A stretch of 28,963 nucleotides of DNA from an uncultured Syntrophales bacterium (GCA_964617255.1 CAZTYA010000001.1:1-28963); one strand, 5' to 3'. Numbered from the stretch's first letter, positions 1-26,709 are shown. Program-made: numbers and translations. Notes: a model not told the origin generated them from the sequence alone.

Positions 1-533
1 TGATGTTTGTAGTAGTTGACCTCGTGGATATGATCCCGGTCATAGGGAATCGTGGCCCGGGAAAAATAGAGGGCAAAAGCATCCTTGTCAAATACCGTCT
101 TGACGGCATTGGGGTGGGTGATCTCCTCTTCCCGGATAATCCGGTAGATCAGCGTGGACATGGGGATAGACGGATCCGCCAGGAGCGGCTCCACCACCTC
201 GTCGACCTGAGTCGGTTCGAAAATGGGCTGATCGCCCTGAATGTTGACGACAATATCATTGGCTTCCAGGCCGAGAACCGTCGCCGCCTCGGCAATCCGG
301 TCCGTTCCGGAACGGTGCCGTTCGGCCGTCATGATGGCCCGGCCGCCGAATTTTTCCACCGCCTCGAAAATCCGCCGGTCGTCGGTGGCCACCGCCGCCT
401 CGGTCACCGTCTTTGCCCGGAGGACCCGCTCATAGACATGCTGGAGCATGGGCTTGCCGCAGAGGTCCGCCAGGGGTTTTCCGGGAAACCGGCTCGATTC
501 GTAGCGGGAGGGAATGACACAGACGATTCTCAT
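1..533 (-). CDS. kdsB: 3-deoxy-manno-octulosonate cytidylyltransferase (CMP-Kdo synthetase), partial; 3' end lies beyond the left window edge
   Basis: Not in the ORF track. Manual minus-strand translation from ATG at 533 gives MRIVCVIPSRYESSRFPGKPLADLCGKPMLQHVYER...VATDDRRI...HRSGTDRIAE...VVNIQGDQP..., carrying the KdsB IPxRYxSxRFPGKPL, SGTDR and QGD motifs. It overlaps the hldD stop as ATGA (530-533). Confidence 0.95.
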   Translation of the reverse strand, partial: MRIVCVIPSRYESSRFPGKPLADLCGKPMLQHVYERVLRAKTVTEAAVATDDRRIFEAVEKFGGRAIMTAERHRSGTDRIAEAATVLGLEANDIVVNIQGDQPIFEPTQVDEVVEPLLADPSIPMSTLIYRIIREEEITHPNAVKTVFDKDAFALYFSRATIPYDRDHIHEVNYYKH

Positions 534-1501
534 AGATGGGCCTCCTGGGCGCCGAGATAATTCGCCACGTAATCCCGGACGGTCTCTTCCAGAGGTTTGA
601 AGGAAACCGGACATCCCAGGTTCCGGAGCTTGTCCATCTTCGCTTCCGTGAAGTACTGGTACTGGGCCTGCAGGTTCTCCGGCATGGGGATGTAGTCGAT
701 TTGAGGTTCCATACCCATGGCCCCGAAAACGGCAGAAATGAGGTCGTTCCAGGTGCGGGATTGGCCCGTTCCGACGTTGAAAATGCCGTTTTTGTCCCGG
801 TTTTGCATAAGCCACCACATGACATCCACACAGTCCTTGACATAGACGAAATCACGCCGCTGCTCCCCGTCGCCGTAATCCGGCCGATGGGATTTGAACA
901 GCCGCACCCGTCCCGTCTCCCGGATCTGGTGGAAGGCCTTGTAGATGACGCTCGACATGTCGCCCTTGTGGAACTCATTAGGCCCGAAAACATTGAAGAA
1001 TTTGATTCCCGCGACCTGTTTCTGGATGCCATAACGCAGGCACCACTGGTCGAAAAGCTGTTTGGAGTAGCCGTACATGTTGATGGGGCGCAGGTCTTTT
1101 ATGCGGGCCTCATCGTCATCGAAACCCTGAAGCCCGTCGCCGTAAGTGGCGGCGGAACTGGCATAAATGAGACGGGGGCTGTGCTTTAACGCCCACTCGG
1201 TCACGCGGCAGGAGTAATGGAAGTTGTTCTCCATGAGGTAGTCCGCGTCCGTTTCCGTCGTGGAGGAACAGGCCCCCATGTGAACAAGGCTCTCGACGGG
1301 AAACGGCACCCGGTCCTCCAGGATCATCTGCAGAAAGACATCCTTGTGGAGAAAATCTGCATAGCGCAGATTGACAAGATTTTTCCACTTGCCGGAAGAG
1401 CCGAGACGATCGACGATAATTACTTTATCGATCCCTTCCCTGTTCAGTTTCCAGACAAAGGCGCTGCCGATAAACCCGGCCCCGCCGGTGACCACGATCA
1501 T
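530..1501 (-). CDS. hldD: ADP-L-glycero-D-manno-heptose 6-epimerase
   Basis: MIVVTGGAGFIGS NAD(P) motif, HMGACSSTTE, YASSAATYG, YGYSK (YxxxK), FFNVFGPNEFHKGDMSSV; AGGAG Shine-Dalgarno upstream. Confidence 0.95.
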   Translation of the reverse strand: MIVVTGGAGFIGSAFVWKLNREGIDKVIIVDRLGSSGKWKNLVNLRYADFLHKDVFLQMILEDRVPFPVESLVHMGACSSTTETDADYLMENNFHYSCRVTEWALKHSPRLIYASSAATYGDGLQGFDDDEARIKDLRPINMYGYSKQLFDQWCLRYGIQKQVAGIKFFNVFGPNEFHKGDMSSVIYKAFHQIRETGRVRLFKSHRPDYGDGEQRRDFVYVKDCVDVMWWLMQNRDKNGIFNVGTGQSRTWNDLISAVFGAMGMEPQIDYIPMPENLQAQYQYFTEAKMDKLRNLGCPVSFKPLEETVRDYVANYLGAQEAHL

Positions 1502-1552
1502 CTTTTAACTCCTATGAATTAAAAGTTAAGTTCCTGTTTCTCACCCTTTCAA

Positions 1553-1683
1553 GAGCCTGTATCGTCGTGTCATTCAGAGGCGCCAGCCGAAGAATCTCTT
1601 CGTTTCAACACACCGTTATTATTAGATTCTTCACTTCGTTCAGAATGACCCCGAATGTAAAATTGTCATTTTGACACAGCCTC
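1553..1683. repeat. Family A palindromic MITE/REP-like element, copy 1 (131 bp)
   Basis: Inner inverted repeats gtcattcaga/tcagaatgac (1569-1578/1640-1649) and gaagaatct/agattcttc. The right end gtcattttgacacagcctc, reverse-complemented, matches the left end of copy 3 at 16/19. The left end gagcctgtatcgtcgt is degenerate but keeps the same 16 nt offset. Confidence 0.8.
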
Positions 1684-1733
1684 CCCAAGGGGAGGGAATC
1701 GGTTCATTACATGCCACTCTATAGCAAAAACAC

Positions 1734-1862
1734 GGCGGCTTTGTAAAAAGCGCCGGAGGCAAGGCGCGCAAATCCTGAGGAATGAGGCGTACTTTCCAAC
1801 CGTATGCCGCAATGACGAAGGATGAAGCGCAACGCAGCATCGGGCCTTTTTACGAAGACGTC
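1734..1862. repeat. Family C 129 bp element with 17 bp terminal inverted repeats (ERIC/MITE-like)
   Basis: ggcggctttgtaaaaag (1734-1750) versus the reverse complement of ctttttacgaagacgtc (1846-1862) is 14/17. Nested inner pairs atcct/aggat (1772-1776/1819-1823) and ggcgtac/gtatgcc (1786-1792/1802-1808). Confidence 0.7.
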
Positions 1863-3065
1863 TTATAACTCCTGTGCAGCCTTTTCGATCGCTGCCTTGA
1901 TCTGGGCGATCCGCTCGTCGGACATCTTCACCGAAATGCCCATCACCAGCGTCCGGCCCAGGAGATCCTCCGCCTGGGGAATGCTTTTCCGTTCGTAGGC
2001 AACCTTACCCTTGTAGGAAGGATCGGTGAAGGGGTACTGTTTCGGGTTCGCCGTCGCAAAAGACAACATATGCTCCCAGTTGGGTGCGTAATGCCACTTG
2101 TTCGCCTTGAAACAAACCGCATCGGCGCCGCCGGCGGACATGCTCTTCTGAAACTTCACCGCCAGTTCTTCCGTCGGCAGGTTGAAGGCGAGGAACGTCG
2201 CCGTGTCGCCGGCCGGATCGGGAATTTCCCGGAAACCGACACCCTTGACCTGGCTCAGGAACCCCTTGATCTTCGCCTTGTTCTTGCGCTGCTCGCTGCA
2301 GACATAATCGAGCTTCCGCAGCTGGGCCAGCCCCAGGGCTCCCTGGAGTTCGTTCATCCGGTAGTTGAAACCCAGGATGTGCCGCCCTTCCATGGCTCGG
2401 GTCACCGCCGGGTTGTGGTCGTGGCCGTGATCATGGTACTCGTCGGCACGCCAGGCGAATTCCTTGTTGTCCGTGATGACCATACCGCCTTCACCGGTGG
2501 TGATCGTCTTGTAATAATCGAAACTGAAAATACCCATGTCGGCAAAGGTTCCCAGTTTCTTCCCTTTGAAGCTGCCGCCGCAGCCCTGGGCGTTGTCTTC
2601 CAGGACCAGGATGTTGTGCTTTTTCGCCACGGCCATGATCTGGTCGATATGGGCCATGGAGCCGCACATGTGGACGGGGATGACGGCCTTGGTCAGGGAG
2701 GTAATCTTCCGTTCGACATCCGCCGGGTCAAGATTCAGGGTGGCATCGATATCGCCCATGACGGGGATGGCGCCTACTTCGAGGACCGCCTCCCAGGTCG
2801 CCACGAAGGTAAAGGCGGGAACGATCACTTCGTCGCCGGGACCGACTCCCATGGCCGCCAGGGCCACCTTCAGGGCCGCCGATCCCGACGTGACGCCCAG
2901 AGCGTAAGTCGTGCCGCAGTACTCGGCAAATTCCTTCTCCAGTTGCTTGACCTTGAAAATGCCTTTTCTCTCGTTGTCAAATCCATAACGCATGAAAACG
3001 CCCGTCTCCAAGACGTCCATGACTTCTTTCATTTCTTCCTTACCGATCAGTTCCGCACCGGCCAT
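1863..3065 (-). CDS. kdnA: PLP-dependent DegT/DnrJ/EryC1/StrS aminotransferase, KdnA-like (8-amino-3,8-dideoxy-manno-octulosonate transaminase)
   Basis: Family motifs SGSAAL, GDEVIVPAFTFVAT, VHMCGSMA, EDNAQ and SFDYYKTITTGEGG (PLP Lys). KdnA-like features recalled from Shewanella KdnA: N-terminal MxGxELxGxEExxEVxDVxExG..RYxFD, DHGHDH, FREIPDPxGD, NxWHYxxNWxH. GGAGG SD; lies next to an Fe-ADH and kdsB. Confidence 0.8.
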   Translation of the reverse strand: MAGAELIGKEEMKEVMDVLETGVFMRYGFDNERKGIFKVKQLEKEFAEYCGTTYALGVTSGSAALKVALAAMGVGPGDEVIVPAFTFVATWEAVLEVGAIPVMGDIDATLNLDPADVERKITSLTKAVIPVHMCGSMAHIDQIMAVAKKHNILVLEDNAQGCGGSFKGKKLGTFADMGIFSFDYYKTITTGEGGMVITDNKEFAWRADEYHDHGHDHNPAVTRAMEGRHILGFNYRMNELQGALGLAQLRKLDYVCSEQRKNKAKIKGFLSQVKGVGFREIPDPAGDTATFLAFNLPTEELAVKFQKSMSAGGADAVCFKANKWHYAPNWEHMLSFATANPKQYPFTDPSYKGKVAYERKSIPQAEDLLGRTLVMGISVKMSDERIAQIKAAIEKAAQEL

Positions 3066-3114
3066 TTTATTGTTCCTCCGTTTGCTTTTTTGTCTTTTAT
3101 TATGAAGCGGTTAA

Positions 3115-3252
3115 GTCATTCTGAGGTGCCAGCCGAAGAATCTTCTTTCATAAGACACCATAAAATATGAATTCTTCGCGGAGTTTATCCTTGAGCGCAG
3201 CAAAGGATTCAGAATGACCACGAACGTAAATTAAACATTATAAGTCAGCCTC
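3115..3252. repeat. Family A palindromic element, copy 2 (left terminal repeat not recognisable)
   Basis: gtcattctgaggtgccagccgaagaatct (3115-3143) is 27/29 identical to copy 1; 3171-3225 is 50/55 identical to 12825-12879; right terminus ...cattataagtcagcctc. Confidence 0.8.
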
Positions 3253-3328
3253 TTGATCCGGGCCCCATCTGCAGAAAGCGACCTCCCGGTAATGGATTCC
3301 GGGTCTCGCTACGCTTGCCCGGAATGAC
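3253..3328. repeat. Family B REP-like element (partial left arm ttgatccgggcccca; right arm tggattccggg...cccggaatgac)
   Basis: Perfect 8 bp stem attccggg/cccggaat (3296-3303/3318-3325) ending in GAC; same architecture as 12947-12974. Confidence 0.65.
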
Positions 3329-3341
3329 ATTTTTTTTACTC

Positions 3342-4499
3342 TCAGTAACACTGTTTGTAAATCTCAACCATGTCCTCCAGTGTCATCTTGCAGGGGTTGT
3401 TCGCCAGGGGCCGCGCCACCGTCATGGCCACCTCGGCCAGCTCCGGGAAAACCGCCTCGGGAATTTCCAACGTCTCCAGCCGTGTGGTGATGCCGCAATC
3501 CTCGATCAGGGCCTCGACCGCTTCCACCGCCAGGTAGGCCGCCTCCCGCAGGGGCAGATTGTCCGTGATCTCGCCCATGACTTCAGCGATATCCATAAAT
3601 TTCTCCAGCGAACCCGGCAGGTTGTAAGCCATAACGGCCGGCAGAATCAACGTATTCGCCAGACCGTGGGGCACGCCGTAACGCCCGCCCAGGGGATAGG
3701 ACAGGGAATGGACCGCCGTCACACCGGCGTTGGCCAGACCGATCCCGGCATAGAGGCTTCCCAAGAGCATCTGCTCCCGCGCCTGGAGGTCGCTTCCGTT
3801 ATGGACGCAGGTTCGGAGGTTTTCTGAAATGAGGCGGATCGCCTCAAGGGAAAACATCTCGCTCATGGATGAGGCGTTAATGGACGTATAGGACTCGATG
3901 GCATGGCACAGGGCATCTATCCCGGTTTCCGCCGTGGGTTTCGGCGGCAGGGTCAGGGTCAGGGTCGGATCGCACAGGGCGATGTCCGGATACAGGTAAG
4001 GGCTGTTCATCCCTTCTTTTTTCTTCAGGTTCTTCCTAACGAAAACGGCGGTGAAGGTCACTTCGCTTCCCGTACCCGCCGTGGTCGGCACCTGGATCTG
4101 CGGCAAACCCGGACCGGGAACGTTGTTCAGGCCGAGATAGTCGACGGCCTTCCCCTTGTTGCCCGCCACGGCCGAAATGGCCTTGGCCGTATCCATCGCG
4201 CTTCCGCCGCCGATCCCGACGACGCAGTCGCATTTTCCCTTGATGGCCGCCTTGGCCCCTTCGTCCACCAGTTCGATGGGGGGTTCGGGAATCACCTTGT
4301 CGTAAATGACGTACTTCATGCCGCCCTTGCCCAGGAGGGCTTCGATCCGCTCCTGGAAACCGGCGCCCGCCAGATTCTGATCCAGGACGATGAGGGGACG
4401 TGAGCCTCTGAGTTCCTTGATATAATCCACCAGGGCGTCAAACGACCCGCTGCCAAAGACGATCTTCTTTGCGCCCGTAAAGGCAAAATTCATTTTCAT
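3342..4499 (-). CDS. Iron-containing (group III) alcohol dehydrogenase; candidate KdnB-equivalent Kdo 8-dehydrogenase
   Basis: GIGGGSAMDTAKA, VPTTAGTGSEVT, and metal ligands in GIDALCHAIES, AVHSLSY and PHGLAN. Start chosen at ATG 4499 (GGGGG SD); the ORF track starts at 4523. Confidence 0.85.
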   Translation of the reverse strand: MKMNFAFTGAKKIVFGSGSFDALVDYIKELRGSRPLIVLDQNLAGAGFQERIEALLGKGGMKYVIYDKVIPEPPIELVDEGAKAAIKGKCDCVVGIGGGSAMDTAKAISAVAGNKGKAVDYLGLNNVPGPGLPQIQVPTTAGTGSEVTFTAVFVRKNLKKKEGMNSPYLYPDIALCDPTLTLTLPPKPTAETGIDALCHAIESYTSINASSMSEMFSLEAIRLISENLRTCVHNGSDLQAREQMLLGSLYAGIGLANAGVTAVHSLSYPLGGRYGVPHGLANTLILPAVMAYNLPGSLEKFMDIAEVMGEITDNLPLREAAYLAVEAVEALIEDCGITTRLETLEIPEAVFPELAEVAMTVARPLANNPCKMTLEDMVEIYKQCY

Positions 4500-4581: not shown

Positions 4582-5340
4582 TCAAGTCTTTTTGTCCCTG
4601 TTCTCCAGAAACCATGCCATCTGTCGACAGATGCCCCGGACGATCTTCACCTCCTTGGCCAAAAGCCCCGTCCGCGAAAAGAGACGCCGGATGTGCATCA
4701 TCCAGTACTCCGGATTCTGGGGATTCAAAAAACCGATATTCGTCAGAATATCGCGCACCTGGCCGTACATCCCTTCGAGTTCCCGGGACGTAGCCAGCTT
4801 GGGCGTAAAGCGCCCGTCGGTATCGGGGCGCCAGGCAAAGATTTCGTAACAGAGGATCATGACGGCATGGGAGAGGTTCAGTGACTTGAACGCCGCCGTG
4901 GGGATGTTGACGACCAGATGACAGAAGCGGAGTTCATCATTGGTCAGGCCGGCGTCCTCGGGTCCAAATAAAAGCGCCACCCGGTTTTTCTGAGACATAT
5001 CGCCGACTTTCTCCGCCATCTCCCGGGGCGTGACCACGGGTCCGCGGGCATTCCCGAGCCGGGCCGTCGTCCCGACGACATACTGGAAATCGGCCAGGGC
5101 GGTCTCCAGATCATCGACATAACGGATGCCGTCGATCACGGAGGCGGCGACATGAGTGGCCCGGCGGTACATCTCATCCTGGTCGAGATCACGATTCCCG
5201 ACCACAATGAGCCGTCCGATGCCCATGTTCTTCCCACACCGGGCAATGGCGCCGACGTTGCCGGCAAACTGGGGCCGGCACAGGACGATGGAAATGTTGT
5301 TTGTGTCCGATTTCATAGGCTTTTGGTTCCCGGTTCTCAT
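4582..5340 (-). CDS. trmJ: SpoU-family tRNA/rRNA 2'-O-methyltransferase, TrmJ-like
   Basis: IVLCRPQFAGNVGAIARCGKNMG, VGTTAR, ALLFGPEDAGLTNDEL, SLNLSHAV, and a C-terminal helical dimer region (RRLFSRTGL..KEVKIVRGI). Alternative start at 5316. Confidence 0.85.
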   Translation of the reverse strand: MRTGNQKPMKSDTNNISIVLCRPQFAGNVGAIARCGKNMGIGRLIVVGNRDLDQDEMYRRATHVAASVIDGIRYVDDLETALADFQYVVGTTARLGNARGPVVTPREMAEKVGDMSQKNRVALLFGPEDAGLTNDELRFCHLVVNIPTAAFKSLNLSHAVMILCYEIFAWRPDTDGRFTPKLATSRELEGMYGQVRDILTNIGFLNPQNPEYWMMHIRRLFSRTGLLAKEVKIVRGICRQMAWFLENRDKKT

Positions 5341-5684
5341 ATGACAAAATCATGACCTTGGCAAATGAAAAAACCGGCCACGATGATATTCCGTGTTGTT
5401 TAAGGATGATGTTTTTTAGAAAATGTCGCATGACCTGATCTCCAAATCGGAGAAATCCATTGACAGATCATCACGTTTATCATAAACAACCGGAAATATT
5501 ATAGCTTTTGTGTGGCTTTGCCATTCACCCACCCAATGGGGGCCGGTGTTAACGAACCAGGGTTTTTGCTCCTTTTGATAACCAACAGAAGGGTTATCGG
5601 ATGAACTTAACCACAACATGTAAGGTCTTTCATCAATATAGATCATTTCGGTCTATGCAAATCACTTCCATCCGGGGGGACGTG

Positions 5685-6209
5685 ATGTTTCCCGTTCCGC
5701 CAACACAAAAAGGGTTCACCCTGCTCGAAGTCATCGCCATCCTTTTGATTTTAGGCATCATTTCCGCGGTTGCCGTCTCCAGAATCGAAACGGACAGCAG
5801 CACCCTCTTTACGACCAGAGATTCCCTGATGGCGCATCTGCGTCTGGCACAGATGCGAGCCATGAACACCACGGCAGACGGCGACTCCGTGTGGGGTCTG
5901 CGCTTTGCCGGAAACAGTCAATACCACCTCTTTTATTGCCCGGCAGCCAGCAGTTGCGACCCGGCGAACCTTGCAAGAAAAGTGGTCGCGCCGGGCGCAG
6001 CCGCCGCAGACATTGATTTAACCGCGAATCAGGTGACATTATCCGGCATCCCGTTTCCCTTCGTTCTTGCCTTTAACCGATTCGGAACTCCTTTCGGCAG
6101 CGCGGCTCTGACCACACCTCTGGGATCCTCCGTCACGATCACCCTGCAGGCCTCCGGGACATCCAGCAGTATCACCATCACACCCCTGACCGGGAGGATT
6201 TCCTCGTGA
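5685..6209 (+). CDS. Type IV prepilin-like minor pilin (FimT/GspH/MshC-like)
   Basis: Class III signal QKG|FTLLE plus hydrophobic helix; RDSLMAHLRLAQMRAM segment; GGGGGA SD before ATG 5685 (the ORF track starts at 5601). Confidence 0.85.
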   Translation: MFPVPPTQKGFTLLEVIAILLILGIISAVAVSRIETDSSTLFTTRDSLMAHLRLAQMRAMNTTADGDSVWGLRFAGNSQYHLFYCPAASSCDPANLARKVVAPGAAAADIDLTANQVTLSGIPFPFVLAFNRFGTPFGSAALTTPLGSSVTITLQASGTSSSITITPLTGRISS

Positions 6210-6646
6210 GAACCCTGGCAAGATCCTCCCGACGGAATGGTTTTTCTCTGATTGAATTGATCGTGATCATTGTTCTTTTCGGCATAATGGGAACCTTTCT
6301 GATCACGCTTAAGGGGCCTCTGGTAAACAGCACCGCTTCTTACTCATGGTTCCAGGATCAAATGGCACTGCAACAGGAAATGGAGAACATCATCGGTCAG
6401 TATAAATATAACCGGTCTACACAAGGAACGCTTTTCGGGTTAACCGCCTTCAGGTCTTGGGTGCTTGGCAGACCTTATGTGGTATCGGCGGAAACGGGAT
6501 TCATCACATTCACACCCGCCCTCAGTGCCGGAACAACAACCTACAGCAGTTCATCCATACAAACGTCTCCTCCGGGTGGCGCCCCGGCGATTTTGATCGT
6601 CACGTTGCGCCTTAACGGCCAAACCCTTTCATGCCTGCTAAGCTGA
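6206..6646 (+). CDS. Type IV prepilin-like minor pilin (PilV/GspI/MshD-like)
   Basis: RNG|FSLIE plus hydrophobic helix; GTGA overlap with the previous stop. Confidence 0.8.
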   Translation: MRTLARSSRRNGFSLIELIVIIVLFGIMGTFLITLKGPLVNSTASYSWFQDQMALQQEMENIIGQYKYNRSTQGTLFGLTAFRSWVLGRPYVVSAETGFITFTPALSAGTTTYSSSSIQTSPPGGAPAILIVTLRLNGQTLSCLLS

Positions 6647-6655
6647 CGGAGGAAT

Positions 6656-7291
6656 GTGCCATTGAATCGAAATAACGGCGGTTTTACTATCATCGAGGTC
6701 ATTGCTTATCTGGTGATTCTGGGAATCATCGTAGCGATTACCGGTATGGGTCTTGTCGAAGGCATCCGGTCTTATTTGTTCACCCGCATGACCGCAGACA
6801 CAGTTCAACAGGCCCAGTTCGCGTTGACCCGCATGAGACTGGAGTTTGTAAACATGGAGACGCCTTCGGCCGGCAACATAGATTCCATAACGTTCCGCAG
6901 TGACAACACCCGACGGAGTGCTGTCGGCAGCGGGTATCTTAACCAGGGCTATGATACTCCCGGAACGACATACCAATTCAGCAGGACGGGGACCCAGATC
7001 AATCTGACCCGTCGCGCCTCCGGCGGCTCCGCCGAGACGCAACCGCTGATCACCGGCCTGGGTCCTTACGGAACAAACGCAGCAGCAGACGCCTTTCTCG
7101 GCTACACGGTGAACACGGCCACGTCACCGTCGGGAAGCCTGCCGGGTGACTTCCGCGACCTGAAACTCATCGCCGTCCGCCTGATTATGAACCGCACCGA
7201 TGAAAATGGAACCTTGACCTTTGTCACGGCGGTCAATCCCAGGAATAACGGCCTGGCCAACTGTCCTGAATCGATACCGGGAGGACAATAA
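6656..7291 (+). CDS. Type IV prepilin-like minor pilin (PilW/GspJ/MshO-like)
   Basis: NGG|FTIIE, hydrophobic helix, QQAQFALTRMRLEF typical of PilW/GspJ-type helices; GGAGG SD with GTG start. Confidence 0.85.
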   Translation: MPLNRNNGGFTIIEVIAYLVILGIIVAITGMGLVEGIRSYLFTRMTADTVQQAQFALTRMRLEFVNMETPSAGNIDSITFRSDNTRRSAVGSGYLNQGYDTPGTTYQFSRTGTQINLTRRASGGSAETQPLITGLGPYGTNAAADAFLGYTVNTATSPSGSLPGDFRDLKLIAVRLIMNRTDENGTLTFVTAVNPRNNGLANCPESIPGGQ

Positions 7292-7331
7292 ATCCCTTGC
7301 TGAAATGCTTCCGGAAGAAAGAAAATCGCCC

Positions 7332-9701
7332 ATGAAAAGGATCTCCCCCGAGCAAAAGGCCGAAATACGCATGGATTTACAGCGCGGTTTTGCCTTGCTT
7401 ACCATCATCTTCGGGCTGATTCTGTTTTCCGCTCTTGTTGCCGGAATGCTTTACCTGTCTTCGTCCAGCAGCCTGGAAACGGTTTCTTCCAACCAGAGTT
7501 TAAACGCCTGGAATCTGGCGGAATCCGGTTACCGCTACCTTGCCGCCAATTATTTGAATACCCAGGACCAAAATGACGATGGTGACTCCGATGAAGAAAA
7601 ATCCGCCTTTTTGGAACTCATCGACGGCAAGCGTTTCACGATCAGCAATCGAGGTTCCTTTTCACTGCGTGTGATGCCGTACTATTTTTCCAATCTTTCG
7701 GGCACAACGACTCCTGCGACCAATTTTACCGTCCAGTTGCCAGGAAGTACACCACCGAACTTCACCATGCCCGCAACCGGCAAAATCATGATCGGCGACG
7801 ATGATCCCTCCTCGGTCCCGCCCAGGGATTACGGCAATGGTTCCTTTAACGCCGCCACCGGCGATTTTTCCTTCAGACTCGCCTCTCCCCCCGTCGCCAT
7901 TAAGCGAGGCGCCAGCGTTTACCTGGTTCTCTATCCCAGCGCCGTGCAGAGCAACCTTTCCCCGGGCAACCATCTCAACCTGGCCCTCAATACCTATACC
8001 GGCAACAGTTTTCCACCGCGCAACGGAAACATTCAAATCGGTTCGGAGCAGCGGCTGTATCGTTATGACACCGCCATAGTCAGCGGTAATGTTTTGTCCC
8101 TGGCCAACCTCCGCCACAGTGACGGGTCTTCCTTCAACACGTCCGTCCTGACCACCACACCGGTCCTCTTCAAAAAATTTTTAGTCCTGAAATCCCTCGG
8201 CGAAGTAGGTCCGGAAAAACGGTCCCTCAGTTTCTACCAGGCGATCCACGACAGCACACGTCAACCGCCCCCGGATGTGATCAACCTGAACACAGCCGCC
8301 GCGCTGAGCGGGAATTTCGGACGAGACGGTTCCATTGCCAGTTCATCCGTAGAAACAAGGCGATTCGCCGGCGGCGGGAGCGGCGCCATTGCCAACGTCA
8401 ATACGCTCAGCGTCACAAACCGAAGCGGCGGCATAGGCCTGAACAACTATAAATGCGGTGCGTTCTGGTACAACAACACATCCAAAATTAACAGCAATTG
8501 GTCTATCACGAAAAACTTGAGCTATGATGTACAGGTTAAGGTCAGCTCAGGGTATCAACTGAGGGAACTGACCATGGGCTTGGCCTTCCGGGCGCAGAAT
8601 ACCGCCGGAACGGGAAATCCCAACACCTTCCTGGCGCTGACCTTCATGCTGTATAATCTGCCCACATTGTATATCAATCAGGTCACGTCCACGGGTAATC
8701 CCGCGATAAATGCCGGTGATACGGTAACGGGGGAATCCAGTGGTGCAACCGGCACGGTACAGGGGGCTCCCGAGATCACCGCAGGCGCTTGGACGGATGG
8801 CAATGCCGTCGCCAAGCTGCGCTTGGTTCAGGTGACGGGAACCTTCGTCAACAATGAATTCCTTCAGGTCAATGGCGTCCGCCGAGCAAGGGCCCTTGCC
8901 GGTAATGCATACATGCCCGCTGCGAACGACTTCATCCCCAATGAAATCAAACCCAAGTTTGACGATTTCAGCACGCCAAACCATAACATCGGCCCGCTGT
9001 TACTGGTACTCTGGGAGCGCAAAAGCGACAACACCTTCCGCTGGCTTGCTTATAAAGAGCTTTCCTACGATCTTTACACCCGGGGTCTCCAGGATTGGCC
9101 CAGCCCCTATGGAACCTGCACCATCAACTGCAACAAATACGACGGCCAGGTGGTTAATGATAACGCTTCGCTCCTGATCCGGGTTAAAGAGAAAAAGGAG
9201 GCTCTCCTGCCGGGTTTTGCGACCGTTAAGTTAAATGAGGTCAATGCATTCTACGGAGATGACTCGGCCCGCTATACGGGTGGAAGAATCGGAAACAGCT
9301 ATGCTTACGACATCATGGCCAATCGGCTCCGTTATCAAATCGGCAGCCCATCGTCCTTCCCCACCTGGCCGCCTAAATGGCTGACCAGCTGGGGTCCGGC
9401 CGTAGATTATTTTTCCCATATCGAAAACCCGGACACCCGACCTCAATTCCAGTGGGATGCCATCAATCCGAATGTGACTGATATCTCCGTGCTGCAAATC
9501 CTTCATGACGGAACCCTGCGCCTGGCCGAATTGGTTACGCCCGATTCCGGATCCTATACACAATCGGAAATCGGCATGATCGGCTGCGGCAACGTCACAT
9601 CAGCCAACAATGCCATAAGCTTTGGGGATTTTTCCCTGAAAATCGGTATCAACGGTCATGAATACGGTGGTTTTTCCGGAACCAGCATGGCCTGGGAATA
9701 A
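7332..9701 (+). CDS. PilX/GspK-like pilin (no Glu5) fused to a large C-terminal beta-rich putative adhesin region
   Basis: QRG|FALLT plus hydrophobic helix and AWNLAESG (PilX N-terminal motif), followed by ~650 aa of Thr/Asn/Gly/Ser-rich sequence. Start uncertain (7305, 7332 or 7371). Confidence 0.75.
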   Translation: MKRISPEQKAEIRMDLQRGFALLTIIFGLILFSALVAGMLYLSSSSSLETVSSNQSLNAWNLAESGYRYLAANYLNTQDQNDDGDSDEEKSAFLELIDGKRFTISNRGSFSLRVMPYYFSNLSGTTTPATNFTVQLPGSTPPNFTMPATGKIMIGDDDPSSVPPRDYGNGSFNAATGDFSFRLASPPVAIKRGASVYLVLYPSAVQSNLSPGNHLNLALNTYTGNSFPPRNGNIQIGSEQRLYRYDTAIVSGNVLSLANLRHSDGSSFNTSVLTTTPVLFKKFLVLKSLGEVGPEKRSLSFYQAIHDSTRQPPPDVINLNTAAALSGNFGRDGSIASSSVETRRFAGGGSGAIANVNTLSVTNRSGGIGLNNYKCGAFWYNNTSKINSNWSITKNLSYDVQVKVSSGYQLRELTMGLAFRAQNTAGTGNPNTFLALTFMLYNLPTLYINQVTSTGNPAINAGDTVTGESSGATGTVQGAPEITAGAWTDGNAVAKLRLVQVTGTFVNNEFLQVNGVRRARALAGNAYMPAANDFIPNEIKPKFDDFSTPNHNIGPLLLVLWERKSDNTFRWLAYKELSYDLYTRGLQDWPSPYGTCTINCNKYDGQVVNDNASLLIRVKEKKEALLPGFATVKLNEVNAFYGDDSARYTGGRIGNSYAYDIMANRLRYQIGSPSSFPTWPPKWLTSWGPAVDYFSHIENPDTRPQFQWDAINPNVTDISVLQILHDGTLRLAELVTPDSGSYTQSEIGMIGCGNVTSANNAISFGDFSLKIGINGHEYGGFSGTSMAWE

Positions 9702-10200: not shown

Positions 10201-12714
10201 TTATTCCTCGATCTCTTCGCCTTCCCCCTCGTCTTCGGGAAGCTCTTCCTCGTCCCCTTCCAAGTCGTCGGTTGTCTCGGAGGAGGTATCACGTTCCACA
10301 CGGGCCATGCTGACGATGCGTTCTTCCTCACTTAAACCGATGAGCTTCACCCCCTGGGTGCTCCGGTGAATGAGGGAGATTTCATCGACGCGCAGGCGGA
10401 TGATCTTGCCGGTATCACTGATGAGAACCACGTCTTCTTCGCCTGTCACCTGGCAGATGCCGGCGACGAAGCCGACCTTGGCCACGGTCTTGAGATTGAT
10501 GGTTCCCTTGCCGCCGCGGCCCTGCAAAGGATATTCGACCACGAGGGTGCGCTTACCGTAACCGTTTTCTGAAACGGTCAGGATGGCGTTGCCTTCCGCC
10601 AGAATTTCCACCCCCACGACACGGTCGTCTTCGTCCATGCGGATGCCCGTGACGCCCCGAGCGGTCCGCCCCAAATCCCTTACGTCTTCGGCATGGAAGC
10701 GAATGGCTTTGCCCTTCCGGGTACCCAGGAAGATATCCTGCTGGTTGTTCGTAATCTGGACATCGATCAGGTCGTCTCCTTCATCGACAGACATGGCGAT
10801 GATCCCGGTGGAACGAGGATTCGCATAAGCAGACAGGACGGTCTTTTTGATAACGCCCTTCTTGGTCACCATGACAATGGACCGGTCGTCCGTGAACTCG
10901 CGTACCGGAAGGATGGCCGCCAGTTTTTCCCCCTGGGCCAGATTGATCAGGTTGACGATGGCCTTCCCGCGGGCGGCACGTCCCGCCTGGGGGATCTGGT
11001 AGACCTTGAGCCAGTACACGCGGCCTTCGGTCGTGAAGATCAGGATGTAATGATGGGTCGAGGCGATGAAGATGTTCTCCACGAAATCCTCTTCCTTGGT
11101 CTGCATGCCCATCTTGCCGCGACCGCCCCGGCGCTGGCTGCGGTAGAGGCTTACGGCGTTGCGCTTGATATAGCCCGAATGGGACACCGTAACGACCATG
11201 TCTTCCTCGACGATCATGTCCTCAATGCCGATATCCTCGACGCTGGTCACGATTTCCGTCCGCCGGTCGTCGCCGAAACGGTCCTTAATGTCATCCAACT
11301 CGCGGACGATCACGTCGAGAATTTTCCGGTTGTCCCCCAGGATGCTCAGGAGTTCCTGAATCAGCCTCATGAGTTCGGCGTATTCCGTGTCGATCTTTTC
11401 CCGTTCGAGACCTGTCAGGCGCTGGAGACGCATATCGAGGATGGCCTTCGCCTGGATTTCCGACAGGCCGAACCTCTCGCAGAGGCGGACCATCGCCTCC
11501 TGGGGATTGTCCGCCTTCTTGATGACGGCAATCACCTCGTCGATATGGTTTAAGGCAATGATGAGCCCTTCCAGGATATGGGCGCGCTCCTTGGCCCGGT
11601 CCAGTTCGAAGCGGGTGCGCCGGATGACGACTTCCCGGCGGAAATCGATGAAACTGCTTAAAACTTCCTTCAGATTAAACACCCGGGGCTGACCATGGTC
11701 GATGGCCAGCATGATGATCCCAAATGAAGTTTCCATCTGGGTATGCTTGTAAAGCTGGTTCAAAATAACCCCGGAGGGTTCGTCCCGCTTCAAGTCGATC
11801 ACGATGCGGATCCCTTCCCGATCGGATTCGTCACGCAGATCGGAAATCCCGCTGATCTTTTTCTCCTTGACCAATTCCGAAATGGCCTCAATCAGGTTGG
11901 CTTTGTTGACCTGGTAGGGAAGTTCCGTCACGATGATGCTTTCTTTTTCGCTTCTCGCGTTGCGCTCGATCAGCGCCCGGGCGCGCATCCGGACGATGCC
12001 CCGGCCCGTCCGGTAGGCGGACAGGATTCCTTCCCTGCCGTTGATGAACCCCGCCGTCGGAAAATCGGGCCCTTGGATGTAGCGCATCAGTTCCTCGATG
12101 GTAATGTCGGGGTTATTGATCAGGGCGATCGTCCCGTTGACGATTTCCCGGAGATTATGGGGTGGAATGTTCGTGGCCACGCCGACGGCGATTCCCGAGG
12201 ACCCGTTTAAAAGCAGGACCGGTAACCGGGCGGGGAGAACCGTCGGTTCCTCCATGGATTCGTCGTAGTTGGGAACGAAATCGACGGTGTCCTTGTCCAG
12301 GTCGGTCAGAAGTTCCTCCGCCAGGCGATCCATCCGGATTTCGGTATAACGCATGGCCGCCGGGGGGTCCCCGTCGATGGAGCCGAAATTGCCCTGGCCG
12401 TCGATCAGGGGATAGCGCATGGAGAAATCCTGAGCCATGCGGACGATCGTGTCGTAGGCCGCCTGGTCTCCGTGGGGATGGTACTTACCGATGATATCAC
12501 CGACGATACGGGCGGATTTTTTATAAGGCTTGTTCCAGCGGTTCCCCATCTCGTTCATCGCAAACAGGACGCGGCGATGCACGGGCTTGAGGCCGTCGCG
12601 GACATCGGGGATGGCCCGGCCGATGATGACGCTCATGGCGTAGCCCACGTAGGACTTCTTCATTTCCTCTTCGATATTTACAGGGATGTTTCTCTGATGT
12701 AACAACTGATCCAT
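10201..12714 (-). CDS. gyrA: DNA gyrase subunit A
   Basis: [29 protein letters not shown] catalytic Tyr, GyrA-box QRRGGRG, beta-pinwheel repeats, acidic tail. Confidence 0.98.
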
Positions 12715-12754
12715 GAAAACGTTCCTTCCTCTTGTGTTTCCTTTTCTCCTCTAT

Positions 12755-12974
12755 GTCGTCCCGTAACCTGAAGGCTGTGTCACAATGCCATTCTGAGGCG
12801 CCAGGTGAAGAATCTCTTCATTAGATTCTTCACGGAGTTGATCCTTGAGCCCCGCGAAGGATTCAGAATGACCACGAACAATCATACGGCATTATGGCAC
12901 GGTCTCATAATCCGGGTTCCGTTTCCAACGCGTCAACCCCAGCAAATGGATGCCGGATCGGAGTCCGGCATGAC
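12755..12974. repeat. Family B REP-like element interrupted by family A copy 3
   Basis: Right arm tggatgccggatcggagtccggcatgac (12947-12974; 8 bp stem atgccgga/tccggcat). Joining 12755-12770 to 12910-12921 rebuilds a left arm matching the reverse complement of the right arm at 19/28. Confidence 0.6.
12771..12906. repeat. Family A palindromic MITE/REP-like element, copy 3 (136 bp)
   Basis: Terminal inverted repeats aggctgtgtcacaatgcc / ggcattatggcacggtct (14/18); inner gccattctga...tcagaatgac and gaagaatct/agattcttc; 50/55 identity with copy 2. Confidence 0.8.
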
Positions 12975-13033
12975 ATGAAAGACTTTTTTATACTCCTTTA
13001 CCAGAGAAAAACTTTTCTCCTTTAACAACGATT

Positions 13034-15442
<2,409 letters not shown>

Positions 15443-15531
15443 TTAAAAACCTCTTTTTTACTTCTTTATAAACAGCCTTATTTTAATAAATAATAAACAG
15501 AAGTATTTTATTTAATTAAATATTTTATTCT

Positions 15532-15562
15532 TTACTTCCTATTTATCCTCTTTTTATCCACA
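15532..15562 (+). promoter_or_regulatory. Perfect DnaA box TTATCCACA (15554-15562) with two in-phase degenerate boxes, in a 20% GC spacer upstream of gyrB
   Basis: Exact consensus match; ttatcctct (15543-15551) and ttacttcct (15532-15540) at 11 bp period; spacer 15440-15564 has 25 G/C in 125 nt. Confidence 0.7.
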
Positions 15563-15564
15563 GC

Positions 15565-16686
15565 TTAAATCATCAAAGGCATGACGACACAGAGGTACTC
15601 GTCATGACTGGCGGAGCGAACAATACCCGGTTTTCTACCCACTCCCAATTCAAAAGCGATGGTCTCCTCGTCGATCACTTCGATGGCGTCAATCAGGTAG
15701 TCCGCATTATAACCGACTTCCAGCTTTTCCCCTTCATAGGAAACATCTATATCCTCCTTGGCTTCACCTACATCGGCATTTTGGGATTGCAGGATCATCC
15801 GGTTCTCGGCAATGGAAAGCAGAACGGTTCTAAATTCTTCCGCCGACACCACCACCCACATTCTGCGAAGGGCATGAAGAAAACCATCCTTTGGCAAAAA
15901 CAGCACCGTACCTTTTTCAGTGGGAATGACCCTTTTGTAATCCGGATACTCCGCATTGATTAAGCTGACTTTCAACAGGACATTACCCGTCTGAACGATA
16001 AACATCTGCCCCATTAATCCAATGGCTACATGGTCCGGATCGTCCTCCACAACTTTTCGGATTTCGCCGACCCCCTTTCTGGGAAGAATAATCCCTACGG
16101 GAATATCGAGAAATTCCGACACATCCAGTTTTTTGTGCGCCAAGGACAGACGATGTCCGTCTGTCGCCACCATTCTGATGGTCACACCCTCCGGCATTGT
16201 CTCGGTCTGTAAAAAAATACCGTTTAAGTTTCTTCTCAATTCATCGGTTGACATCGCAAAAAAGACCTTGCGCACCATTTCCTTGATGAGGGTGCCCGAG
16301 ATGGGAAACAGGGGAACATTTTCTTCGGCTACGACCGCCGGATATTCATCAGCAGAAATACCCATGATCCGGTAAACCGCCTTTTGACAGGTCAGCGTCA
16401 CAATGTTACGGGAATCGGTTTCGACGTGGATGGCCTCACCCTGAATTTCTCTAATCATTTCATAGAGTTTTTTAGCGGAAAGGGTTATTTTTCCTGCTTC
16501 GGTCACCTCAGCTTCATAACGGGCAATGAGACTGATCTCACGGTCGGTGGCCACGATACGCACCCGGTTTTCTTCCGCTTCCAGGAGAATGTTACTCAAG
16601 ATGGGGAGGGTTGTTTTCTTATCGACAATGCCCAGTGTTTTTTGCACGCCTTCCAAAAAAACATCTCTTTTAATCGTAAAATCCAT
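15565..16686 (-). CDS. dnaN: DNA polymerase III beta sliding clamp
   Basis: MDFTIKRD...TTLPILSNILL, ATDREISL, VATDGHRL, IILPRKG, YPDYKRVIP, VGYNADYLID, VVMP. Start set at ATG 16686 (AAAGGA upstream); the ORF track uses 16698. Confidence 0.96.
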   Translation of the reverse strand: MDFTIKRDVFLEGVQKTLGIVDKKTTLPILSNILLEAEENRVRIVATDREISLIARYEAEVTEAGKITLSAKKLYEMIREIQGEAIHVETDSRNIVTLTCQKAVYRIMGISADEYPAVVAEENVPLFPISGTLIKEMVRKVFFAMSTDELRRNLNGIFLQTETMPEGVTIRMVATDGHRLSLAHKKLDVSEFLDIPVGIILPRKGVGEIRKVVEDDPDHVAIGLMGQMFIVQTGNVLLKVSLINAEYPDYKRVIPTEKGTVLFLPKDGFLHALRRMWVVVSAEEFRTVLLSIAENRMILQSQNADVGEAKEDIDVSYEGEKLEVGYNADYLIDAIEVIDEETIAFELGVGRKPGIVRSASHDEYLCVVMPLMI

Positions 16687-16698
16687 CTTCGTCTGCAT

Positions 16699-16850
16699 CC
16701 TTTCGGTTTAAATTAGTTATTTAAGTTTTTCTAATATTTAAATTAGTTATAGTAAAAGAACCTGTGGATAAACAGTAATGATTGATATAAAGCCGGTCTT
16801 TTTCTCTTCTTCTGTCATTTTTTCCTTGTGGATAAAACCTGTATTTAAAG
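16699..16850. other. Predicted oriC unwinding region (dnaA-dnaN spacer)
   Basis: Two perfect DnaA boxes TGTGGATAA (16763-16771, 16827-16835); DnaA-trio-like run TAG TTA TAG TAA (16744-16755) next to the proximal box; 16707-16760 is 89% AT; perfect 14 bp direct repeat tttaaattagttat (16707-16720, 16737-16750). Confidence 0.8.
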
Positions 16851-18212: not shown

Positions 18213-18224
18213 GGTTATAAATCC

Positions 18225-18256
18225 TCATCCACATGATTATCCACAAGTGTGGATAG
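18225..18256. promoter_or_regulatory. DnaA box cluster in the dnaA upstream region
   Basis: tcatccaca (18225-18233, 8/9), ttatccaca (18237-18245, 9/9), tgtggatag (18248-18256, 8/9, opposite orientation). Confidence 0.8.
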
Positions 18257-18332
18257 CTCTGTTCTTTTTTCCTGGTTTTAACGATGTCGGCCTATGTAAC
18301 GTTAAATGACGTCTACAAAACCATCTGTGGCA

Positions 18333-19190
18333 TCAATCCGGATTCATCTTAAAGAAAAGTTCGACCAGCCGTCCCAGTTCTTCCGTGGAAGAAAAGTTGA
18401 TTTCGATGGAACCTTTTTTACTTTTCTTTTTGATCTGCACCCGTGTCATCAATAAAGCAGACAGTTTTTTCTCCAGATCTTCCAGATATTGTTCCCGCTT
18501 GAGCGTCTTTTTTTCCGCTTTGGGCGCCCTGAGCGTCTGAATGAGCTTTTCCGTTTCCCTGACGTTCAGATCTTTTTTGATAATCGTTTGAAATACGGCC
18601 GTTTGTTGTTCCGTCGCTTCGCAGGCAAGAATCGCCCGGGCGTGTCCAGCCGTGATCTTTTTTTCTACCAGGGCTTCCTGTATCTTTCCCGGCAGTTTCA
18701 ACAGACGGATCGTGTTGGCCACGGTGGAGCGATCCTTTCCTATTTTCGTGGCGATGCTCTCGTGGGTCTGACCGAAAGTCTCAACCAGGGTCCGGTAAGC
18801 GTCGGCCTCCTCCAGAGGGTTCAGGCCTTCACGCTGAAGGTTTTCGATCAGGGACAACTCGGCGGCTTCGACATCGCTGGCGGTGCGGATGACAATGGGA
18901 ACGCGATCCAGACCAGCCTCCTGGGCGGCCCGCCAGCGTCTTTCCCCGGCGATGATCTCGTAGCCGGTGTCGTCTTTTCGGACAACGATGGGCTGAATGA
19001 TGCCGCTTTTCCGGATGGAAGCGACGAGTTCCTTCTGTTCACGGTCGCGGAAATCCTTGCGCGGCTGGTAACGGTTCGGCCGGATCTCTTCGATGCCGCA
19101 GGTGATCAGGCGAGGCCGGTCTTCCATATCCGTCATGAGGTCGGGGAACATGGCTTCCAATCCCCGTCCTAAGGATTGTTTCGGTGGCAT
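18333..19190 (-). CDS. parB: Chromosome partitioning protein ParB/Spo0J
   Basis: N-terminal LGRGL peptide, IRPNRYQPRKDF, GIIQPIVVR, IIAGERRWRAA, IENLQREGLNPLEEA, HTH GKDRSTVANTIRLL; starts immediately after the parA stop. Confidence 0.96.
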   Translation of the reverse strand: MPPKQSLGRGLEAMFPDLMTDMEDRPRLITCGIEEIRPNRYQPRKDFRDREQKELVASIRKSGIIQPIVVRKDDTGYEIIAGERRWRAAQEAGLDRVPIVIRTASDVEAAELSLIENLQREGLNPLEEADAYRTLVETFGQTHESIATKIGKDRSTVANTIRLLKLPGKIQEALVEKKITAGHARAILACEATEQQTAVFQTIIKKDLNVRETEKLIQTLRAPKAEKKTLKREQYLEDLEKKLSALLMTRVQIKKKSKKGSIEINFSSTEELGRLVELFFKMNPD

Positions 19191-22869: not shown

Positions 22870-23002
22870 AAAATCCTTTGTTGCACAACATCCGATGTGT
22901 TAATTTGAGTTGGAGCAGGGGATACCGGTTTCCGTAAATCGGCAGCGCATCATCAGGAGCCGTTTTAAGGCAAAGCGGATCAGATACCACGGATATTCTA
23001 AC

Positions 23003-26683: not shown

Positions 26684-26709
26684 TGGACAGAAAAAGGAGG
26701 GACCGGATC

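Follow-up and report, generated by a model that had tools for sequence, protein, structure and literature searches.

The window analysed here, a stretch of 28,963 nucleotides from an uncultured Syntrophales bacterium, begins with four genes on one strand that encode a group III iron-containing alcohol dehydrogenase (Fe-ADH), a KdnA-like PLP-dependent aminotransferase, HldD and KdsB, in the gene order ADH>kdnA>hldD>kdsB (Table 1). All four had been named as a co-oriented run by an initial annotation of the same DNA. An ADH, an aminotransferase and a CMP-Kdo synthetase are encoded together, with hldD, whose product is a precursor of the LPS inner-core heptose, inserted among them. HldD and KdsB both score above curated NCBIfam equivalog cutoffs, the latter on the N-terminal 177 residues that are visible from its ATG at position 533 before the gene leaves the window at the left edge. 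This ATG overlaps the hldD stop codon (ATGA). A TrmJ-like gene lies at the boundary of the cluster and presumably has no part in the pathway; the TrmJ>ADH neighbourhood is found in Syntrophales loci and is absent from other orders. The host lineage comprises strict anaerobes living in digesters (Syntrophales, anaerobic sludge).

Table 1. Features at the left end of the window, numbered from its first nucleotide
Feature	Position	Strand	Remarks
TrmJ-like SpoU RNA methyltransferase	4582..5340	-	TIGR00050, 197 bits (cutoff 167)
Fe-ADH (group III)	3342..4499	-	385 aa; Pfam Fe-ADH and ADH_Fe_C
Nested-palindrome repeat element	3100..3305		between ADH and kdnA
KdnA-like PLP aminotransferase	1863..3065	-	400 aa; DegT_DnrJ_EryC1 (PF01041), 298 bits
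Terminator-like hairpin	1750-1767	-	near the repeat copy at 1554..1704
Nested-palindrome repeat, second copy	1554..1704		between kdnA and hldD
hldD, ADP-L-glycero-D-manno-heptose 6-epimerase	530..1501	-	TIGR02197, 407.7 bits (cutoff 274.6)
kdsB, CMP-Kdo synthetase	1..533	-	TIGR00466, 190.5 bits (cutoff 155.2); NF003952, 225 (cutoff 193)

The nested-palindrome repeat is present in three copies in the window, and the interruption of the cluster by two of them and by a terminator-like hairpin counts against the reading that we favour below. The gap of 276 nt between ADH and kdnA is due to the insertion of one such copy, which is no component of the pathway; in a related locus (L002), the two genes are just 35 nt apart. 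In RNA-derived contigs the repeat reaches a depth of 21-45x as opposed to roughly 3x for genes, and the element is therefore multicopy. Contigs of this kind from sludge metatranscriptomes cover all four genes and run through the ADH-kdnA spacer with its repeat element.

How close is the aminotransferase to KdnA? Its best PDB match (phmmer) is KdnA 5K8B, with 363 bits and an E-value of 1.7e-107 over residues 1-397; 5K8B and 5K8C are structures from the KdnA/KdnB system of Shewanella oneidensis. Identity to S. oneidensis KdnA is 46% over 398 aa, a level at which substrates may still differ. The Schiff-base lysine (K186 in 5K8B) is kept ('FSFDYYKTITTGEGG' aligned to 'YSFDSVKTITCGEGG'), and the KdnA-like segments to which the initial annotation had pointed are all present in alignment with the S. 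oneidensis protein (RYGFD at 26-30, DHGHDH at 212-217, FREIPDPAGD at 278-287 and NKWHYAPNWEH at 322-332). Seventy-five positions, including K186, RY.F, DHGHDH, FR...D..GD and N.WH....W, reach at least 95% conservation in both the Shewanella-type and the window-type KdnA clade, with the same residue in each; only 5 positions discriminate between the clades.

It is conceivable that this likeness is superficial and that the protein is an ordinary NDP-sugar aminotransferase of the DegT/PseC/perosamine type, acting in O-antigen or capsule synthesis. Its best NCBIfam matches are indeed the PseC, LegC and ArnB models (177-207 bits), and NCBI labels homologues 'DegT/DnrJ/EryC1/StrS family'. However, all of these model scores are far under the respective cutoffs. 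The next PDB match, perosamine synthase, reaches 192 bits over residues 39-256 (the N-terminal domain) only, and NDP-sugar enzymes cover no more than residues about 39-290; the KdnA alignment extends over the whole protein, with nearly double the score. Neighbour-joining (NJ) sets the KdnA-like proteins, that of the window included, apart from 38 generic DegT sequences in 40 of 50 bootstraps; when the full data are used, the tree places three borderline sequences (L275, L279 and L280) inside the KdnA-like set. Nor is an NDP-sugar dehydratase or nucleotidyltransferase encoded nearby in the window. We consider an NDP-sugar enzyme highly improbable: by its full-length best match, its identity and its place in the tree, the protein groups with KdnA, the outcome on which the initial annotation had staked its proposal. 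Judged by its sequence, the aminotransferase is a true KdnA relative, and we propose that it acts as an 8-oxo-Kdo:L-glutamate aminotransferase making 8-amino-3,8-dideoxy-D-manno-octulosonate (Kdo8N). The expectation that generic annotation would miss this is borne out for the ADH partner, which is named generically everywhere, but not for the aminotransferase, whose homologues already carry the KdnA name at JGI ('8-amino-3,8-dideoxy-alpha-D-manno-octulosonate transaminase').

Across a collection of species representatives, with one genome per species, 543 genome stretches match the KdnA-like protein. The order ADH>kdnA is found in 68 of 79 ADH-anchored Syntrophales loci, and the arrangement ADH>kdnA(>hldD)>kdsB recurs, hldD lying between kdnA and kdsB in Syntrophales loci only. 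Among roomy loci, ADH is directly upstream of kdnA in 12/15 from Syntrophales and 26/47 from other Desulfobacterota orders, and kdsB lies within the flanks of many roomy Desulfobacterota kdnA loci. Such recurrence is no chance neighbourhood. Other lineages carry kdnA-like genes 1 kb from lpxC/lpxK, or ahead of heptosyltransferase and lipid A acyltransferase genes; together with the linkage to kdsB, this ties kdnA to the LPS core. A midpoint-rooted KdnA tree splits KdnB-linked from ADH-linked KdnAs exactly, and canonical kdnA-kdnB-kdsB clusters occur outside Shewanella too. A third set, from Synergistota, has the order kdsB>Fe-ADH>kdnA, so that all three cluster types include kdsB alongside kdnA. 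In one Syntrophaceae genome (L264), a window-type ADH has a Synergistota-type KdnA as its neighbour in place of the native one, which implies that the parts are interchangeable.

For the Fe-ADH, the mechanical reading frame begins at TTG 4523 (an alternative start); the ATG at 4499 (M9) was chosen because homologues align only from about residue 7-13. Both Pfam domains are clearly matched (Fe-ADH, E 1e-48; ADH_Fe_C, E 1e-56), and no NCBIfam equivalog is reached (ErcA, NF041833, 318 against 550 bits; lactaldehyde reductase, TIGR02638, 312 against 523 bits). The GGGS motif, the Asp/His/His/His metal ligands and an Asp aligned with FucO Asp39 are conserved, with positions 105-107, D185, H272 and H286 invariant. 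The link to KdnB drawn by the initial annotation holds in so far as the enzyme belongs to group III, but not as orthology, which we rejected: it is 28% identical to S. oneidensis KdnB over 289 aa, and KdnB 5K8C ranks 37th of 41 PDB matches, at 90 bits versus 249 for the top match. No KdnB-type gene is present in loci L001-L080. The best overall PDB matches are methanol, lactaldehyde and propanediol dehydrogenases (249-230 bits, about 40% identity). Scores of related Fe-ADHs fall smoothly, leaving no gap, and monophyly of all kdnA-linked ADHs is weak (16 of 60 NJ bootstraps). Going by these similarities, the Fe-ADH was recruited separately, as a paralogue, from the FucO/DhaT-like branch of the family and not from the KdnB lineage.

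The window ADH nevertheless has one feature in common with KdnB and with the Synergistota ADHs, namely the motif K169-x-G171-x-N173. G171 and N173 are 100% conserved across all three kdnA-partner ADH lineages, whereas among the other closest Fe-ADH representatives G171 occurs in 39% and N173 in roughly 4% (5/137). The motif-bearing representatives (P0124, P0125, P0128, P0143 and P0260) are kdnA-linked or lie in ulosonic-acid clusters, and three motif-less ones of equal or higher similarity (P0126, P0129 and P0133) are neither. One exception (P0122) is kdnA-linked and has T, not N, at 173. Used prospectively, T158/G171/N173 predicted kdnA or ulosonic-acid contexts in both of two tests, on two distant ADHs.

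Could the Fe-ADH be an unrelated neighbour serving general alcohol or aldehyde metabolism, with KdnA making Kdo8N from 8-oxo-Kdo supplied by an oxidoreductase encoded elsewhere? The overall similarity to catabolic Fe-ADHs would fit, as would the weak bootstrap support for a dedicated clade, the occurrence of kdnA without an adjacent ADH in the genus Syntrophus and several Desulfobulbales, and five Smithella-type loci that keep TrmJ>ADH without kdnA. Yet ADH still directly precedes kdnA at about 50% protein identity, in loci that range from Syntrophales to Desulfobacterales, Desulfobulbales, Desulfarculia and unclassified MAGs, and no other oxidoreductase recurs beside kdnA in the neighbourhoods compared. 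As T158/G171/N173 is moreover common to this ADH and KdnB and has the predictive value just described, we regard an unrelated neighbour as rather improbable, and propose from sequence comparison that the Fe-ADH is an NAD+-dependent Kdo 8-dehydrogenase, a functional analogue of KdnB.

Alternatively, the ADH and the KdnA-like enzyme may aminate a related sugar acid other than Kdo, or another position, candidates being a nonulosonic acid made by NeuB, Ko and a heptose derivative. They would then yield an amino-ulosonic acid distinct from Kdo8N, conceivably for capsule or O-antigen instead of the inner core. At two loci (L330 and L331), motif-bearing ADHs adjoin NeuB-type synthases, a KdsC-like phosphatase, CMP-transferases and capsule export genes, and the enzyme pair can therefore serve ulosonic acids besides Kdo. 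The distance from the characterised KdnA and the position of hldD inside the window cluster could be taken in the same sense. Against this, neither the window nor its relatives contain a NeuB-type synthase, the linked cytidylyltransferase scores above the equivalog cutoff for CMP-Kdo synthetase, kdnA-like genes of other lineages lie next to lipid A and inner-core genes, and the active-site motifs are common to window and Shewanella KdnA, with so few clade-discriminating positions. A different substrate thus seems unlikely for the window cluster.

We envision instead that the cluster probably specifies an NAD-dependent variant of the Kdo8N branch of LPS core synthesis, which would lead from Kdo via 8-oxo-Kdo and Kdo8N to CMP-Kdo8N. 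The Fe-ADH would use exchangeable NAD+ to turn the hydroxymethyl group at C8 of free Kdo into an aldehyde, and the KdnA-like enzyme would transaminate 8-oxo-Kdo with L-glutamate to Kdo8N, a step that would draw the unfavourable oxidation forward. KdsB would then form CMP-Kdo8N, from which WaaA, encoded elsewhere, would transfer Kdo8N to lipid IVA, while HldD would be a source of the adjoining inner-core heptose. By analogy with Shewanella, we infer that the inner core would become less negative and the envelope more robust; loss of Kdo8N makes a Shewanella mutant more susceptible to polymyxin and bile salts (review PMC4402001).

The literature describes Kdo8N as exclusive to Shewanella. From an evolutionary perspective, it is possible, and we suggest tentatively, that C8 amination of Kdo, or terminal-carbon amination of ulosonic acids, is widespread in anaerobic diderms (Desulfobacterota, Synergistota, and some Bacteroidota and Gammaproteobacteria). 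A single KdnA family would have acquired partners from different Fe-ADH lineages on at least three occasions, these lineages having converged on, or retained, K-x-G-x-N, and the FucO-like version that exchanges NAD+ would let the pathway run without oxygen. Kdo is the most conserved LPS sugar. If the proposal is correct, many strictly anaerobic syntrophs, sulfate reducers and Synergistota have a less anionic inner core. This would matter for the stability of the outer membrane, for resistance to cationic peptides and metals, for phage receptors, for contact between cells in syntrophic aggregates, and for the way in which the immune system recognises LPS. A function would be gained for a large set of genes annotated as 'iron-containing alcohol dehydrogenase', T158/G171/N173 (window numbering) would provide a search motif for kdnA-partner ADHs, and the ADHs would represent a clean case of enzyme replacement within a superfamily by a paralogue, not an orthologue.

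How does the cluster compare with known systems? The S. oneidensis kdnA-kdnB-kdsB cluster is said to have been assigned to Kdo8N biosynthesis by Gattis and colleagues in 2013. Both clusters combine a group III ADH, a KdnA-family PLP aminotransferase with conserved motifs and a CMP-Kdo synthetase, and both ADHs carry K-x-G-x-N. The window ADH, however, belongs to the other, FucO/DhaT-like lineage and is about 30 residues longer, its gene precedes kdnA whereas kdnB follows it, and the window cluster belongs to a strict-anaerobe digester lineage, unlike its Shewanella counterpart. KdnB, the Kdo 8-oxidase (Fe-ADH subfamily cd08184), is counted among the oxidases that use O2 and binds NAD(H) and Zn tightly, whereas the window ADH has sequence features suggestive of an ordinary enzyme with exchangeable NAD+. 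Its fold, GGGS motif and metal ligands, and the Asp that specifies NAD, are those of FucO, DhaT and NAD-dependent methanol dehydrogenase, but its context is LPS synthesis, not catabolism; the residues aligned with FucO N151 and F254, presumably pocket positions, are T and L and are invariant in the kdnA-linked set. The Synergistota clusters, of which we found no description in the literature searched, unite the same trio of functions and their ADH carries G171/N173, but this ADH is of a third lineage (31-35% identical to KdnB), the gene order differs, and their KdnA is only about 40% identical to that of the window. A more distant parallel is the ArnA/ArnB pathway to L-Ara4N, in which a sugar hydroxyl is oxidised, a DegT-family enzyme transaminates the product and positive charge is added to the inner region of LPS, conferring resistance to cationic peptides. 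The logic of oxidation followed by transamination and the kind of phenotype are the same as in the Kdo8N pathway, but ArnA/ArnB act on nucleotide sugars derived from UDP-glucuronate, employ an SDR-type dehydrogenase, and place their product on lipid A phosphates instead of replacing Kdo.

The 400-aa aminotransferase of the cluster at 1-4499 finds S. oneidensis KdnA, the enzyme that aminates Kdo to 8-amino-3,8-dideoxy-D-manno-octulosonate (Kdo8N), as its top match among all PDB sequences (5K8B; 363 bits, E 1.7e-107, residues 1-397), followed by a perosamine synthase that reaches 192 bits over residues 39-256 only. BLASTP identity to S. oneidensis KdnA is 46% over 398 residues, and the four KdnA-like motifs singled out in the initial annotation all align with that enzyme, as does the Schiff-base lysine. 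When 29 Shewanella-type and 81 window-type sequences were aligned, the two groups shared an identical residue, conserved to at least 95% in each, at 75 positions, and only five positions separated them. As to whether the protein belongs with KdnA or with NDP-sugar aminotransferases, the KdnA-like sequences form a clade against generic DegT aminotransferases from unrelated phyla in 40 of 50 neighbour-joining bootstraps (Shewanella-type group 50/50, Synergistota-type 50/50, Desulfobacterota-type 33/50). On this sequence evidence, which we regard as decisive, the window aminotransferase is assigned to the KdnA family.

Gene calls and translations bear out four co-oriented minus-strand genes, with the kdsB ATG and the hldD stop codon overlapping; neither the Fe-dependent alcohol dehydrogenase (Fe-ADH) nor the aminotransferase reaches an NCBIfam equivalog cutoff. 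The Fe-ADH ORF also has a longer TTG start, but alignments to homologues begin only near residues 7-13 when counted from the TTG, and the ATG at 4499 is therefore preferred as the probable true start. The closest relatives of every gene belong to uncultured Syntrophales, Smithellaceae and Syntrophaceae MAGs, and metagenomes of biogas fermenters, anaerobic digesters, sludge and sediment contain almost the same DNA, which makes it reasonable to call the host an anaerobe.

Features of the window and their family assignments
Feature	Position	Strand	Remark
kdsB, first 177 codons	533 to window edge	-	above curated NCBIfam equivalog cutoff
hldD	530-1501	-	above curated NCBIfam equivalog cutoff
Nested-palindrome intergenic repeat (~150-200 nt), copy 1	1554-1704		within LPS cluster
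DegT-family aminotransferase, 400 aa	1863-3065	-	general Pfam assignment only
Nested-palindrome repeat, copy 2	3100-3305		within LPS cluster
Fe-dependent alcohol dehydrogenase	3342-4499	-	general Pfam assignment only
TrmJ-like methyltransferase	4582-5340		upstream of Fe-ADH
Three small pseudopilin-like genes	5601-6209, 6206-6646, 6656-7291		N-terminal methylation motifs
826-aa ORF	7221-9701		no Pfam or NCBIfam match
gyrA, gyrB, dnaN, dnaA, parB, parA	10201-19961	-	replication-origin block
Nested-palindrome repeat, copy 3	12772-12959		between gyrA and gyrB
811-aa polytopic membrane ORF	opens 20434-27459		no family match
FAD_binding_2 flavoprotein	22910-24577		
673-aa multihaem cytochrome	24662-26683		MtrC-like and c7-like matches
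Rhodanese-domain protein	26680-27459		

Is the second enzyme of the pair then KdnB, as had been proposed? Compared with an S. oneidensis-type KdnB (from locus L082), the window ADH shows just 28% identity across 289 residues, and the KdnB structure 5K8C ranks 37th of its 41 PDB matches at 90 bits, against 230-249 bits for NAD-dependent methanol dehydrogenase, FucO and DhaT. The identification with KdnB thus has to be given up. The catalytic set is nevertheless intact: the GGGS motif and the Asp/His/His/His metal ligands are present, and so is an Asp at the position of FucO Asp39, a residue favouring NAD+ as the cofactor. KdnB is termed an 'oxidase' in PDB and CDD, and is said in its structure paper to hold NAD(H) tightly. 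It is a possibility that a freely NAD+-exchanging, FucO-like ADH would suit an obligate anaerobe. As a strict rule this idea was rejected, because two Desulfobacterales MAGs (L152, L154) and Synergistota carry KdnB-like enzymes.

The expectation that generic annotation would miss the pathway was correct for the ADH, whose homologues are called only 'iron-containing alcohol dehydrogenase' or 'class IV', but not for the aminotransferase, many homologues of which are already named '8-amino-3,8-dideoxy-alpha-D-manno-octulosonate transaminase' by JGI ('DegT/DnrJ/EryC1/StrS family' at NCBI). A sharply bounded ADH subfamily was considered and rejected, since similarity scores against 1.84 billion representatives fall smoothly. 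In the neighbour-joining tree of all data the ADHs linked to kdnA form one clade, yet only 16 of 60 bootstraps recover it, and they fall into two to three purely linked sub-clades. Dedication of the ADH was consequently judged by gene context and residue signatures instead of a subfamily boundary.

A search with the ADH recovered 79 further loci, all from Syntrophales, of which 68 have a kdnA-like gene directly downstream, five lack it and six end too early. In the five kdnA-less loci, which are of Smithella type (L174, L192, L191, L219, L217), TrmJ and ADH are kept in order; a 92-aa ORF precedes kdsB in two, and a long-chain acyl-CoA synthetase comes next in two others. When kdnA served as the anchor instead, and loci were counted only if they had enough flank on either side, the immediate upstream neighbour was the ADH in 12 of 15 loci of Syntrophales and in 26 of 47 loci of other Desulfobacterota (Desulfobacterales, Desulfobulbales, Desulfarculia, Desulfovibrionales-labelled and unclassified MAGs); in three more of the latter it lies within 4 kb. 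Both proteins of the distant Desulfobacterota are only about 50-55% identical to those of the window, implying that the adjacency outlasted long divergence. Often kdsB sits just downstream, and the hldD insertion is found only in Syntrophales. A kdnA without the ADH still resides among LPS genes, as in a Desulforhopalus genome, where lpxC and lpxK are 1 kb away from it, and at locus L240 genes for a heptosyltransferase and a lipid A acyltransferase come after the ADH-kdnA pair. The region left of the window had been suggested as a place for waaA or kdsA; close relatives have neither there, kdsB being followed by a PlsC-type acyltransferase and a GlnA-like gene or by an amidohydrolase, and waaA is absent from the window and from the relatives' flanks.

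At ten ADH positions the linked set is conserved to at least 90%, while at most 15% of other close representatives share the residue. Within the motif K169-x-G171-x-N173 with T158 (residue numbers, including L263, count from the TTG start), G171 and N173 are invariant in three kdnA-partner lineages, namely the window type, gammaproteobacterial KdnB and the Synergistota ADH, whereas among other representatives 39% have G171 and just a few per cent have N173. The FucO counterparts of T158 and L263 are N151 and F254, which we take from FucO engineering work to be substrate-pocket residues. Representatives bearing the signature (P0124, P0125, P0128) are kdnA-linked; P0122 is linked too, although its residue 173 is T. 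Representatives that are just as similar and lack the signature show no such linkage, and neighbour an SDR (P0126), a YqeC/peptidase pair (P0129) or an AOR/TRAP/CoA-transferase set (P0133). The motif was then tested prospectively by looking up the context of two distant bearers. The P0143 ADH, 41% identical, shares its cluster with a NeuB-type synthase, a KdsC-like phosphatase and an aminotransferase of KdnA type (53% identity to the window KdnA); the P0260 ADH has a CMP-ulosonic-acid synthetase on one side and a NeuB-type synthase on the other, an aminotransferase comes next, and capsule export genes adjoin. Hence, the motif appears to mark Fe-ADHs that act on 3-deoxy-2-ulosonic acids and are paired with an aminotransferase. 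The placement of G171/N173 Fe-ADHs beside NeuB-type synthases, CMP-transferases and aminotransferases in capsule-like clusters (L330, 3501-8164; L331, 2658-6794) hints at terminal-carbon amination of nonulosonic acids, an activity of which we know no description.

How might the cluster act? We envision a pathway in which the NAD+-dependent ADH would oxidise free Kdo at C8, the KdnA-like enzyme would transaminate the resulting aldehyde with L-glutamate, KdsB would activate the Kdo8N and WaaA would place it on lipid IVA. Shewanella that has lost Kdo8N is more easily harmed by polymyxin and bile salts (review PMC4402001), and by analogy the amino group would lower the negative charge of the inner core and stiffen the envelope. 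Taken together, we consider it fairly probable that the window cluster makes Kdo8N for LPS.

Contigs from sludge metatranscriptomes match all four genes at low depth, and some span the ADH-kdnA spacer (at 2940-3128 and 3086-3378), although DNA carry-over is possible. The cluster has long spacers of 276 and 361 nt because two copies of a nested-palindrome repeat have inserted; in the relative L002 the ADH-kdnA gap is only 35 nt. The repeat has GTCATTCTGAGG...TTCAGAATGAC as its outer arms, with GAAGAATCT...AGATTCTTC as the inner pair. RNA-derived contigs reach 21-45x at the repeat versus about 3x at flanking genes and show many loose ends, so the element must be multicopy; it is probably a mobile REP/MITE-like element. 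Rfam has no match anywhere in the window, the repeat included, and the repeat has fold z-scores of no more than -1.2 to -2.0. Downstream of kdnA there is a terminator-like hairpin; such sites are not enriched over shuffled sequence, and a promoter and terminator scan gave counts no higher than the shuffled expectation.

The presence of parA, parB, dnaA, dnaN, gyrB and gyrA places the cluster near the chromosomal replication origin, within about 12 kb of dnaA, a proximity also seen in relatives; G+C falls to 0.44-0.48 at 15-19 kb. In a Syntrophales MAG (L020, 2701-4625), a 430-aa ORF, presumably DNA methyltransferase-like as judged by eye, and a 210-aa ORF lie between trmJ and the ADH, marking this junction as an insertion site. 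The gene set at 20434-27459 could constitute a redox module.

A third version of the module, found in Synergistota (L251-L276, L296), runs kdsB, Fe-ADH, kdnA-like gene; its Fe-ADH is 31-35% identical to KdnB and its KdnA about 40% identical to that of the window. Some Synergistota loci have kdsB downstream on the opposite strand. A Syntrophaceae MAG (L264, on the contig of L175; 2536-6272) has a window-type ADH (72% identical), then a KdnA of Synergistota type (identity 78% to L262 and 40% to the window), then hldD. Here, kdnA looks to have been replaced by horizontal transfer from another lineage, and such mixing argues that different KdnAs and ADHs share one job.

The open literature on Kdo8N concerns Shewanella only, and we found no paper on kdnA homologues in Desulfobacterota or Synergistota, nor on an alternative dehydrogenase. 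Given that databases already name the aminotransferase, the occurrence of kdnA beyond Shewanella could be read from them and is no discovery; the new points, as judged from sequence and gene order, are a putative second and third Fe-ADH lineage serving the proposed pathway, a shared motif predicted to identify kdnA-partner Fe-ADHs, and the apparent breadth of the module among anaerobic diderms. The canonical order kdnA, kdnB, kdsB was present in 78 of 80 loci retrieved with S. oneidensis KdnA (L081-L160), and its carriers outside Shewanella include Corallincola, Paraferrimonas, Aliikangiella, Piscirickettsiaceae, Thiomicrospira, Francisella-labelled MAGs, a Flavobacterium MAG and two Desulfobacterales MAGs (examples L137-L157), contradicting the literature statement that Kdo8N genes are Shewanella-specific. 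In a midpoint-rooted tree, KdnA sequences split exactly into those partnered with KdnB and those partnered with the window-type ADH.
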